Source: a virus. From it: a DNA stretch of 41,190 nt. Below the pieces are notes generated by a model. It worked only from the letters and a program-made list of their open reading frames with translations. It made no database searches and was not told where the DNA came from. The stretch covers positions 1-41,190 of IMG/VR virus record IMGVR_UViG_3300027533_000012; one strand, 5' to 3'. A program made the position numbers and the translations under genes. This document shows, piece after piece, positions 18,501-26,840 of this stretch (position 1 is the first letter of the stretch; every line of letters starts with the position of its first letter).

Positions 18501-18850
18501 CCGCGGCGCCGACGCGCGAGATGATGACCCGCTTCGATGCCCTGCACCGGGAGCACTTCGGCACGAAGGCGCTGCTATTCGCCGGCAAGGATGCGGCACT
18601 GCTCGCCAAGCTCTGGCGGTCGCATGGCGAACTCGTCTACGACTGGATGCCCGCGTTCTTTCAGGCCCGTGACCCGTTTGTGGAGGCCCGAGGCTATACC
18701 GTGGGCATGTTCGTCTGGTTCGTGCCACGGCTGCTCGTGAAGCGCACGGTCCGGCCAGCGGATTACGGCGGCTGGCATGACGAGTGCGAGGCGCTGCATG
18801 GCGGGCGCTGCACCAATGCCCACTTCCATGCGGCCGTGATGCGTGGTTGA
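18497..18850 (+). CDS. hypothetical protein
   Basis: 117 aa with ATGA coupling to the methyltransferase gene. Confidence 0.55.
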   Translation: MTAAPTREMMTRFDALHREHFGTKALLFAGKDAALLAKLWRSHGELVYDWMPAFFQARDPFVEARGYTVGMFVWFVPRLLVKRTVRPADYGGWHDECEALHGGRCTNAHFHAAVMRG

Positions 18851-18903: not shown

Positions 18904-19440
18904 ATGAAACTGACCATTACCGAAGCACTCGCCGAGATCAAGACCATCACGAAGCGGCTGGAGAAGAAGCGCCAGTTCGTGGCGTCATATCTCCTGCGCG
19001 CGGAAGCCGCCAAAGACCCGCTCGAAAAGGACGGCGGCACGCCGCTCGTCCTCGCGCGTGAATCGCAGGCCATCGTGGACCTCGAGACGCGCATCGTCGC
19101 CATTCGCACGGGCATCCAGCAGGCCAATCACCGCATCGCCGTGACCGTCAGCGGCCAGACCAAGATGCTGGCCGAGTGGTTGACATGGCGCAAGGAAGTC
19201 GCGCCGGGCCGGCAGTCGTTTCTAGACCTGCAGCGGCGCACCATCGTCGCCAACCGCCAGAACTTCCAGAAGCAGCTGAACGCCAACCCGGATGATATCG
19301 GCCTCAAGATGGGTATCGCCGTTCAGGTCGATGAAGGCGCACTGGCGAAGGACGCCGAGACGATTGAGACGATTCTAGGCGCGCTCGACGGCCAGTTGTC
19401 GCTGAAGAACGCGACGGAGTTCATCGAACTCCCGGACTAG
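18904..19440 (+). CDS. DIP1984/septicolysin-like family protein (function unknown)
   Basis: 178 aa from ATG 18904, preceded by GAGGGA. MKLTITEALAEIKTITKRLEKK, IQQANHRIAV and LDGQLSLKNATEFIEL follow the family pattern as I remember it. Confidence 0.4.
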   Translation: MKLTITEALAEIKTITKRLEKKRQFVASYLLRAEAAKDPLEKDGGTPLVLARESQAIVDLETRIVAIRTGIQQANHRIAVTVSGQTKMLAEWLTWRKEVAPGRQSFLDLQRRTIVANRQNFQKQLNANPDDIGLKMGIAVQVDEGALAKDAETIETILGALDGQLSLKNATEFIELPD

Positions 19441-19488
19441 TTTAGGTTTCGCCTTGGGCAGCGAAGTGAGAGTAGACAGCGCACAACC

Positions 19489-19558
19489 GCTTGATTAGCT
19501 CAATTGGTAGAGCACGGGCTCACGCCCGGTGTAATGGGTTCGAATCCCATATCAAGCT
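19489..19558 (+). tRNA. tRNA-like gene with a truncated 4-nt anticodon loop (non-decoding or pseudo-tRNA)
   Basis: Acceptor stem GCTTGAT/ATCAAGC, D arm GCTC-AATTGGTA-GAGC, anticodon arm CGGGC-TCAC-GCCCG, variable region GTGTA, T arm ATGGG-TTCGAAT-CCCAT, then U73 followed by CC. Confidence 0.75.
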
Positions 19559-19586
19559 CCTGCATAGGAGCAACCGACACTCAGAA

Positions 19587-19657
19587 GTTGAATGTTGAAA
19601 CGATGAAATCTCAGGCTTTCAACGCTCACGACTGATGGTTGAACGATGCTTGAAATC
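19587..19657 (+). repeat. AT-rich cluster of GTTGAA/TTCAAC hexamers
   Basis: GTTGAA occurs at 19587, 19594 and 19638, TTCAAC at 19618 and CTTGAA at 19649. The composite units GTTGAAACGATGAAATC (19594-19610) and GTTGAACGATGCTTGAAATC (19638-19657) are imperfect direct repeats. Confidence 0.5.
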
Positions 19658-19765
19658 CAGCACTCACGGGAGGTCGTGGCGCAATCCACGGCATGGGCAC
19701 GCGAGGTCGCCCATTCTCCCCCGGCTGGCTGTTGTTGCGAGGCGAATCGTTTTTCTGGAGATGTA

Positions 19766-19912
19766 ATGAAGCACACGACCACGACGCGCGTCACGCGGCA
19801 CACCTGCCTCCGCTGCGATTACACCTGGATGCCGCGGTATCCGACCCCGCCCAAGGTCTGCCCGGTGTGTAAGTCGCTGCTCTGGCGCACGCGGAAGGGC
19901 GTGAAGCCATGA
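19766..19912 (+). CDS. small Zn-ribbon protein
   Basis: 48 aa from ATG 19766, preceded by GGAGA. Contains CLRC...CPVC. The upstream extension to 19646 has low GC3. Confidence 0.55.
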   Translation: MKHTTTTRVTRHTCLRCDYTWMPRYPTPPKVCPVCKSLLWRTRKGVKP

Positions 19913-25889: not shown

Positions 25890-26101
25890 AGCATCCGCTA
25901 TCGCCGGAGTTCTACGAGGCGTTGACCGAGTGGGATGAGCACCTTCGGCGGCTATCCTGCGCCTACATACAGGGCATGGCCGCTGAATACGACCGCATCT
26001 TCACCGAATCACCAGCACTCCCGGCTCCCGATGGAGCCAGCACACGGCGCCCACAACCGCCGCGAGTAGACCTGCCCACCAGCGGGCTCGGCCCAGACTA
26101 G
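25886..26101 (+). CDS. hypothetical protein; the 3' end overlaps the M50 gene antisense
   Basis: 71 aa with ATGA-type coupling. The last 101 nt are antisense to 26001..26840. Confidence 0.35.
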   Translation: MKHPLSPEFYEALTEWDEHLRRLSCAYIQGMAAEYDRIFTESPALPAPDGASTRRPQPPRVDLPTSGLGPD

Positions 26102-26840
26102 GCTCCAGCCACGACACCGGACTCGGCGCTGGCCCCGTGAGCAGCATCACCACGCCGACAAACAGCCACGTCAGCAGATGCGTGGCCTGCCAGGTCACGG
26201 GAATCCAGCAGGCGTAGGACACCCACTGCGCCCGCTTCGCCCCGATGAGGGCTGAGACAATCTGCCCGCCATCGAACGACCCATACGGCAGCAGGTTCAC
26301 GCCGGTCATCACCAGCCCAATCCACCCCGCCACCGCCACCGGATGCCAGACGACGGTCTGATGGCTGTAGAGATACTTCTGCCACGCCAGCGCCAGCCAC
26401 GGCTGTCCGAGCCGCGACAAGCCGTCTGAGGCGTCAGACGGAGCGGACCAGCCCATCGACACCAGCAGGATGACGATCGCGGCCGCAAAGCCCGCCAGCG
26501 GCCCGGAGAGGGCCACGTCGAACAAGGCGCGGCGAGAGGGGAACGGACCCGCGACACGGATGGTCGCCCCGAGCGTGCCCGTGACCAGGAACGGCGCCGG
26601 GATGAAGTAGGGCCCGGTCCATCGGATGCGGTAGTGGTCGATGACGACCAGATGGGCGGATTCGTGCAGGCCGATGATGCCGTGGAGCGCGGCGGAGAAG
26701 GCCAGCCCGTAGCCCCACGAGGCCCAGAACGGCAACCAGACGCCCGTGGCGGCCTCGTGGTAGCCGATGCCGTGGAACATGCCCGCCAGCGTCGTGGTCG
26801 CCCACGTCGCCAGCCAGAGCCCCACGACGCGACGGGTCAT
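26001..26840 (-). CDS. M50-family site-2 (intramembrane) metalloprotease
   Basis: 279 aa, polytopic. It has HESAH (an HExxH motif) in a hydrophobic segment and NLLPYGSFDGG (the NxxPxxxxDG second S2P motif). Confidence 0.8.
   Translation of the reverse strand: MTRRVVGLWLATWATTTLAGMFHGIGYHEAATGVWLPFWASWGYGLAFSAALHGIIGLHESAHLVVIDHYRIRWTGPYFIPAPFLVTGTLGATIRVAGPFPSRRALFDVALSGPLAGFAAAIVILLVSMGWSAPSDASDGLSRLGQPWLALAWQKYLYSHQTVVWHPVAVAGWIGLVMTGVNLLPYGSFDGGQIVSALIGAKRAQWVSYACWIPVTWQATHLLTWLFVGVVMLLTGPAPSPVSWLEPSLGRARWWAGLLAAVVGAVCWLHREPGVLVIR

Follow-up and report, generated by a model that had tools for sequence, protein, structure and literature searches.

Cloverleaf structures that take no part in decoding are known from mascRNA, at the 3' end of MALAT1, and from the t-elements of plant mitochondria, both of which are conserved among relatives and have a demonstrated cleavage. 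In systems of this type, cleavage by RNase P and RNase Z defines the ends of neighbouring RNAs, and RNase P needs an acceptor stem. Anticodon loops that depart from the usual 7 nt are found in frameshift suppressors of the sufD type, with 8 or, rarely, 9 nt that still present an anticodon, and tRNA genes are, furthermore, classic sites of integration. In phages, tRNAs have been proposed to evade anticodon nucleases through mutations in the anticodon loop, with the altered tRNAs still in use (eLife 2023, PMC10264068).

The element described here lies in a phage-like contig of 41 kb (64% GC), which was analysed over its full length of 41,190 nt and is referred to below as the window. Like phage tRNA genes and pseudogenes, it is a phage-borne cloverleaf scoring above the Rfam threshold and located in an intergenic region after a replication and DNA-metabolism block of the helicase/methyltransferase type; its GC content is below that of the genome (51% against 64%), and ordinary tRNAs occupy the same place in relatives. 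Unlike in phage tRNA pseudogenes, the single lesion is a clean loss of three nucleotides from the anticodon loop, with nothing else degraded. With mascRNA and the t-elements it shares a cloverleaf set in a longer (here, probable) transcript, an intact acceptor/T-arm half, an odd anticodon region and the predicted absence of decoding, but many occupants of the same position in relatives have no acceptor stem. Both the element and the sufD-type suppressors have loops of other than 7 nt; the loop of the element, however, has 4 nt, and opening it to 8 nt would cost 6.5 kcal/mol. As in the tRNAs considered in PMC10264068, the change is confined to the anticodon loop, and the turnover of isotypes at this position would fit an arms race, whereas the three missing loop nucleotides set the element apart from those tRNAs, since decoding would be lost with them. 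A term search of the text of PMC10264068 gave no occurrence of deletion, truncated or pseudo, and a literature search on short-loop tRNA-like RNAs of phages returned nothing relevant.

A tRNA-like gene with a 4-nt anticodon loop

The structural genes of the window encode portal, major head, scaffold, terminase and head-closure proteins, and its genes of DNA metabolism, on the + strand, encode an Erf-like annealing protein, MazG, a helicase, an N6/N4 methyltransferase and a VRR-NUC protein. A protein with a Peptidase_M50 (site-2 protease) domain, unusual in phage, is encoded at 26001-26840 on the - strand (Pfam E=2.4e-15). The element is located about 50 nt 3' of the gene for a 178-aa protein (p178), within a noncoding region of about 325 nt that ends at a 48-aa gene, and the place that it occupies is hereafter called the slot. 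The features of the region are as follows:

18904..19440, + strand: gene p178, 178 aa in the gene calls of public contigs, with a longer open reading frame from 18877; it marks the slot in all related loci
19451..19474, + strand: motif GCCTTGGGCAGCGAAGTGAGAGTA (family consensus GCCTTCGGCRGCGAAGTGAGAGAA); the element starts 14 nt later
19489..19558, + strand: tRNA-like gene of 70 nt, from Rfam, ARAGORN, RNAfold and our own covariance model, identical in five assemblies
19515..19528, + strand: anticodon arm CGGGC-TCAC-GCCCG with its loop at 19520-19523, from Rfam and MAFFT alignments and fold energies
19556..19571, + strand: trailer hairpin GCTCCT-GCAT-AGGAGC, in which U73, CC and the final acceptor bases are included
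19559..19560, + strand: CC following U73, with T as the base after it; CCA is thus only partly encoded
19580..19657, + strand: array of short purine-rich repeats (GTTGAA, GATGAA, CTTGAAA, inverted TTTCAAC), read from the sequence
19673..19714, + strand: pair of neighbouring hairpins (GTCGTGG-CGCAAT-CCACGGC and ATGGGC-...-GCCCAT) ahead of the next gene
19766..19912, + strand: next gene, 48 aa by gene calls, reading like a zinc ribbon (CxxC...CxxC) and with only weak Pfam matches

The element reads GCTTGAT-TA-GCTC-AATTGGTA-GAGC-A-CGGGC-TCAC-GCCCG-GTGTA-ATGGG-TTCGAAT-CCCAT-ATCAAGC-T, followed by CC. It comprises an acceptor stem of 7 bp, a D arm of 4 bp with an 8-nt loop that includes GG, a T arm of 5 bp with the loop TTCGAAT, a variable region of 5 nt and the discriminator U73. 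All 21 stem pairs are Watson-Crick and all universal bases of the D and T loops are there, with U8, A14, G18G19, A21, G53, T54-T55-C56, A58 and C61 kept; the T-CC end is also seen in a tRNA-Gly of a Vibrio phage and in several tRNAs of the slot. Against Rfam RF00005 the element scores 55.8 bits (gathering score 29; E=1.6e-9), with the 5-bp anticodon stem kept in the alignment, and against our own tRNA covariance model it scores 70.5 bits. RF00005 is the only family matched in the window at the gathering threshold, with no match to the other families (tmRNA, Y-RNA-like, GOLLD, ROOL, ribozymes), and a search of 19400-19800 at E<=1 returned nothing else notable. In RNAfold, the 4-nt-loop cloverleaf is at once the minimum free energy and the centroid structure (-28.6 kcal/mol, z=-4.0); it makes up 62% of the ensemble, and none of 200 shuffled sequences folds equally well. 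Sequence, stems, length and 4-nt loop are exactly those that the initial annotation had read from the letters, and its question whether exactly three loop nucleotides are missing is answered by the alignments, in which the anticodon loop is 3 nt shorter than in all tRNAs compared, through a clean gap both in the Rfam alignment and in a MAFFT alignment with eight phage tRNAs.

The element therefore has the cloverleaf, the arms (with G18G19 and a T loop of the GTTCRANYC type) and the score of a canonical bacterial-type elongator tRNA. It lacks the corresponding 7-nt anticodon loop, in which U33, three anticodon bases and a purine at 37 belong, its own loop being UCAC. The clear tRNA ancestry combined with a decoding-incompatible lesion is that of a tRNA pseudogene, and the intact acceptor/T-arm half inside a probable longer transcript is that of the mascRNA and t-element type; the 8- or 9-nt loop reading four bases of a frameshift suppressor is absent. 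ARAGORN labels the element tRNA-Val(CAC), at 19489-19560, through the strained 7-nt-loop alternative that had also been foreseen, a fold without nucleotide 26, with a G:G mismatch and a 3-nt variable loop, and 7.9 kcal/mol worse by energy evaluation. By the same evaluation, a fold with a 6-nt loop costs 3.5 kcal/mol and one with an 8-nt loop 6.5 kcal/mol relative to the 4-nt-loop fold, the latter by opening two G-C pairs and placing U at loop position 3 instead of the usual U33 position. Given the dominance of the 4-nt-loop fold and the cost of its alternatives (3.5-7.9 kcal/mol), the modelled structures support the conclusion that the element is unable to decode. On these predicted folds, the tRNA-Val(CAC) annotation is wrong or misleading, an artefact of a program that mainly seeks loops near the standard 7 nt. 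Identity as tRNA-Val(CAC) was rejected as well because the core is distorted in the required fold and the discriminator is U73, not A73; A73, A35 and C36 are the identity elements of tRNA-Val.

The short loop is reproducible. An identical 72-nt sequence, with CGGGCTCACGCCCG, is present in five assemblies recovered by exact-protein look-ups, all of which span the tRNA region: ENA ERZ27267614 and ENA ERZ27267656 (with contigs named k141_*), JGI 3300043602, JGI 3300044742 and Logan SRR35198164. One contig differs from the window at 2 positions over 3.8 kb, both elsewhere than in the element. Five identical assemblies from three pipelines exclude an assembly error, and the short-loop variant is fixed in the phage population from at least five samples, which implies that the phage is viable and circulates with the short loop.

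The slot downstream of p178 and its occupants

The homologues of p178 number more than 1,600, at 50-62% identity, and form a very large unannotated family of phage proteins; they are found on metagenome contigs assigned to Chloroflexota, Alphaproteobacteria, Planctomycetota, Bacteroidota, Armatimonadota and Gemmatimonadota, and none in the protein collection searched falls between 62% and 100% identity. The 178-aa form of the protein is present in the record and a 187-aa form of the open reading frame is absent from it. The p178 model (pLDDT 96.8) is a helical bundle with a small sheet, with 3kdq, an uncharacterised protein of Corynebacterium diphtheriae, as its best PDB match (E=8.7e-3) and uncharacterised phage proteins as its best matches in BFVD (viral). 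Searches of Pfam, NCBIfam, PDB sequences and folds gave no function, 3kdq being the only structural match, and the literature on DIP1984 and septicolysin was uninformative for p178.

The motif GCCTTCGGCRGCGAAGTGAGAGAA follows p178 homologues in 83 distinct loci, 79 of which were aligned (examples are L083 4545-4568 and L138 694-717), and it is often extended by YGCAYRGGA. It is absent from Rfam. The motif could form a 5-bp hairpin (89.6% paired) followed by GUGAGAGAA, and covariation in this hairpin was not above controls in the alignment of 79 loci. Its interpretation as a repeated phage promoter was dropped because it occurs only once in the window. Judging from the contigs compared, motif and slot are common to phage-like contigs binned with several bacterial phyla. 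Between positions 18800 and 20000 there is no sigma-70-type promoter and no terminator on the + strand, and hence none between p178 and the element, which is therefore probably co-transcribed with the upstream gene or genes.

On the 3' side of the slot, the repeat array recurs in many relatives (L084 4853-4935 and L086 4690-4770, with repeats of the GTTGAA, GCTGAAAG and CTCAAAG types) and could represent iterons, operators or an RNA-binding platform. Pairs of hairpins equivalent to those at 19673..19714, with other stem sequences, were found by eye at L084 4936-4990 and L086 4783-4826, and this retention of position with differing stems suggests a structured 5' leader. The trailer hairpin was considered as a feature specific to slot tRNAs and discarded, being not clearly enriched (15 of 30 slot tRNAs against 30 of 77 other tRNAs).

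To describe the occupants of the slot in related phages, 147 further loci were gathered around p178 homologues. In 41 of the 127 related loci, ARAGORN places a tRNA no more than 400 nt beyond the p178 homologue, in most cases 33-71 nt past the stop codon, with isotypes that include Ile, Gln, Thr, Arg, Glu, Asp, Ser, Tyr, Asn, Val and Pro, and with an 8-nt loop in one case. The tRNA covariance model mentioned above was built from 16 canonical tRNAs of related loci and used to search all loci. The census took in the 78 distinct loci that carry the motif and offer at least 130 nt of downstream sequence, with the following outcome:

Canonical tRNA, of varying isotype: 20 of 78 loci
Defective tRNA-like sequence: 14 of 78 loci
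Lone T arm: 5 of 78 loci
No match to the model: 39 of 78 loci

The lesions vary among loci and include lost acceptor stems, loops of 3, 4, 6 or 8 nt and missing arms; such locus-specific lesions are as expected from decay in a hotspot of gain and loss. In eight of the 14 defective occupants the D, anticodon and T arms are perfect and between 0 and 5 of the 7 acceptor pairs are present, and no slot occupant other than the window element has a short loop as its single defect. The closest relatives, with p178 about 60% identical, have the same flanking architecture and other slot contents: a tRNA-Gln(UUG) in L084, a tRNA-Thr(AGU) in L086 and, in L083, a remnant comprising only a D-arm-like hairpin and an anticodon arm that clearly resembles a Gln arm. 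Grouping the occupants by BLAST as a basis for tracing their evolution failed because they are too diverse, with just six pairs clustering.

Several further sequences were noted in these loci. A second short-loop tRNA-like sequence lies outside the slot at L084 2881-2948, with the arm CUGGC-UUU-GCCAG (a 3-nt loop), a G2:G71 mismatch, the T loop UGCAAAU and a D loop without GG; it scores 50.6 bits in Rfam and is missed by ARAGORN. The slot tRNA at L132 3582-3656 has an 8-nt anticodon loop (UUUAAAGA), which ARAGORN reports as tRNA-??? with the 4-base anticodon TAAA, and is a candidate for a tRNA of the frameshift-suppressor type. Cores with perfect D, anticodon and T arms and no pairing acceptor stem are found at L169 663-717, L175 837-890, L145 1974-2026, L144 2000-2059 and L189 717-777, and the first two of these have a common anticodon stem and differ in their 'anticodons' (CGU and CAU, respectively). 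At L116 2886-2977, a sequence scoring 43.3 bits with the tRNA model combines intact stems with an anticodon loop enlarged by a 27-nt insertion, and may be an intron-containing phage tRNA. Finally, a permuted (two-piece) tmRNA gene is present on a viral contig at L106 5992-6241 (Rfam 94 bits), with the tag peptide ATAEPFALPMAA according to ARAGORN.

Of the 78 slots, 47 contain a hairpin whose 5-bp stem closes a 7-nt YU...R loop; the corresponding frequency is 4.8% for control windows taken from these loci and 3.7% for shuffled sequences. Where no tRNA is detectable, these hairpins often display textbook anticodon loops, such as CUGCUAA, CUGAAAA, CUUGUAA and CUUUUAA. Furthermore, a comparison of L174 3555-3700 with L195 750-895, where the occupant is a non-canonical cloverleaf-like sequence, reveals two fully compensated pairs in the anticodon-like stem (CTCGA/TCGAG and CTGGC/GCCAG), with the loop CUGCUAA and about 60 nt of flanking sequence identical. 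Hairpin enrichment and compensated pairs together point to some selection on RNA structure in the slot, which would then not be just a graveyard. As far as sequence comparison can tell, this selection seems to favour anticodon-arm-like hairpins, the very feature missing in the window copy, and not an acceptor stem for RNase P.

The ancestry of the element itself is ambiguous. No DNA relatives of the 2-kb region were found in GenBank phages, and the exact pattern of the element, allowing any loop length, has no match in IMG/VR or in 185,579 species genomes (GTDB). The searches found no diverged relative sharing the element or its short loop. IMG/VR relatives identified through the neighbouring methyltransferase have only the helicase and the methyltransferase in common with the window; the closest of them (L001-L013) have no tRNA by ARAGORN or Rfam, and three more distant loci have unrelated tRNAs. 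The closest tRNA in GenBank phages is the Vibrio-phage tRNA-Gly(TCC), with 77% identity, which ends in U73-CC as the element does, has the variable region in common with it and aligns to it with the 3-nt loop gap, as the Gly-type backbone proposed initially would lead one to expect, but the closest tRNAs among the related loci are of the Ile and Thr isotypes, at 73%. The isotype of origin is thus uncertain from these comparisons, with Gly plausible against Ile or Thr. Deletion of positions 33-35 from a UUNCCAC loop would yield UCAC.

Origin and possible roles of the element

On balance, we consider it probable, if by no means assured, that the element is a recently disabled tRNA gene in a tRNA slot of high turnover. 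A phage tRNA gene would have lost three nucleotides of its anticodon loop and, with them, the capacity to decode; the loss would be recent, and the copy would have no selected function of its own. The slot after p178 and the motif would turn over fast, with intact tRNAs of many isotypes, damaged tRNAs and fragments passing through it, and the Erf-like annealing protein of the phage could drive exchange at short homologies. That only the loop is defective, with no secondary damage, fits a young lesion. The initial annotation had left open whether the element was a freshly disabled tRNA or an RNA not meant to decode: the loss of decoding stands, and the sole defect, together with the intact tRNAs of relatives at this position, favours the former. 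The comparison with relatives that it had called for found intact tRNAs at the same slot, but of other isotypes and with the short loop conserved in no diverged relative. With no relative of p178 at 62-100% identity, there is no sign of a short loop conserved over time. We infer the label of pseudogene from structure, and not from comparison, since searches of IMG/VR, GTDB genomes and GenBank phages gave no orthologue whose loop is intact.

A gene disabled in this manner would probably still yield an RNA cut by RNase P and tailed with CCA, because its acceptor/T-arm half is intact. By known identity rules, this RNA would be unlikely to be aminoacylated or to be productive at the ribosome: synthetases that read the anticodon would have no target, the 3:70 pair is U:A, where AlaRS needs G:U, and there is no long variable arm, which SerRS needs. 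Several observations count against the interpretation as a recently disabled gene. The short-loop form is fixed across at least five samples. The slot occupants are not simply rotting, as seen in the tRNA-type hairpins of 47 of 78 slots and in the perfect D, anticodon and T arms of eight of the 14 defective occupants in spite of their bad acceptors. The second short-loop case, in L084, indicates that the phenotype recurs. The structural selection seen in L174 and L195 could also extend to the window copy.

Several of these observations, on the other hand, lend some weight to a possible, though in our judgement rather less than probable, role as a functional tRNA-shaped RNA that does not decode. 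Such an RNA might act as a processing signal for RNase P or RNase Z, provide a stable structural module or soak up enzymes that recognize the tRNA body. As a processing signal, cleavage would set the 3' end of the upstream mRNA, within the motif hairpin, or the 5' end of the downstream RNA. The intact acceptor/T-arm half with encoded CC, a cut by RNase P that known substrate rules make probable, the lack of a promoter or terminator separating the element from p178 and the presence of a conserved motif 14 nt upstream are all consistent with this role, as are the enrichment of tRNA-type hairpins, the compensatory changes among slot occupants, the fixation of the variant in five samples and the existence of a second short-loop case. 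Yet acceptor stems are poor in eight of the 14 defective occupants and 39 of the 78 slots have no tRNA-like match, so that processing of the RNase P type is no general requirement of the slot; the anticodon-type stem-loop, which is the feature most retained by non-canonical occupants, is absent here; and the short loop is conserved in no diverged relative. The role as an RNase P signal or 3'-end stabiliser suggested at the outset is a possibility weakened by the many slot occupants without a usable acceptor stem, whereas a decoy for anticodon nucleases, suggested with it, fits the window copy poorly because the loop that these nucleases recognize is the part that is missing.

A broader and more speculative interpretation, which we regard as unlikely, is that the region after p178 is a conserved accessory locus for noncoding RNA, made up of the motif, an exchangeable module of tRNAs or anticodon stem-loops and the repeat array, with the 4-nt-loop RNA as a deliberate mimic of the tRNA body. 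The module would be swapped under selection and might supply a replacement tRNA, act as a decoy for tRNA-targeting defences of the host or form a structure that sets RNA ends. A mimic with a 4-nt loop would be tRNA-like in processing, immune to anticodon nucleases and invisible to the ribosome.

The remaining explanations are each contradicted by direct tests. It is very improbable that the element is a working decoder, whether a tRNA-Val(CAC) formed through the shifted stem or a frameshift suppressor formed by opening pairs to give a 6- or 8-nt loop. ARAGORN does call tRNA-Val(CAC), U33 is present and position 37 is a purine in the shifted loop CUCACGC, and the relative L132 has a tRNA with an 8-nt loop, but the shifted fold is 7.9 kcal/mol worse, does without nucleotide 26, contains a G:G mismatch and leaves only 3 nt for the variable loop, while the 4-nt-loop fold takes up 62% of the ensemble. 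By known identity rules, U73 and G37 are also atypical for Val. The link to frameshift suppression that had been raised as a speculation finds no support, the 8-nt loop costing 6.5 kcal/mol and leaving the U misplaced at loop position 3.

Still less credible is a recombination target of the attP type matching a host tRNA gene, another role suggested initially. tRNA genes are often integration sites, and in some slot occupants the 5' acceptor strand does not pair with their own 3' strand, as in attP fragments. The scans of the window with PHROGs and Pfam, however, confirm the initial impression that there is no integrase (a 27-residue match at E=1.8e-4 is the sole trace), the element is a complete cloverleaf and not a 3' fragment, and integration would give the host a non-decoding tRNA. 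No exact match exists among the 185,579 species genomes, a search limited to exact matches. Least tenable of all is an assembly or sequencing artefact concealing a true loop of 7 nt, which had been named as a possible refutation: GC-rich hairpins can be error-prone, but five assemblies, made from different samples with three pipelines, agree exactly on the sequence.

Significance of the element and of the locus

Taken alone, the element adds one disabled tRNA, most likely a young pseudogene, to those of phages, and its practical lesson lies in the misleading tRNA-Val(CAC) label that ARAGORN assigns to it. The wider interest is in the locus described here, in which p178 and a conserved motif precede a slot holding interchangeable tRNAs, damaged tRNAs and anticodon-arm-like hairpins, with the repeat array beyond. 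If the slot were an accessory locus, its occupants would constitute a natural series from the intact tRNA to fragments, and this series could show which parts of phage tRNAs are selected, and why.
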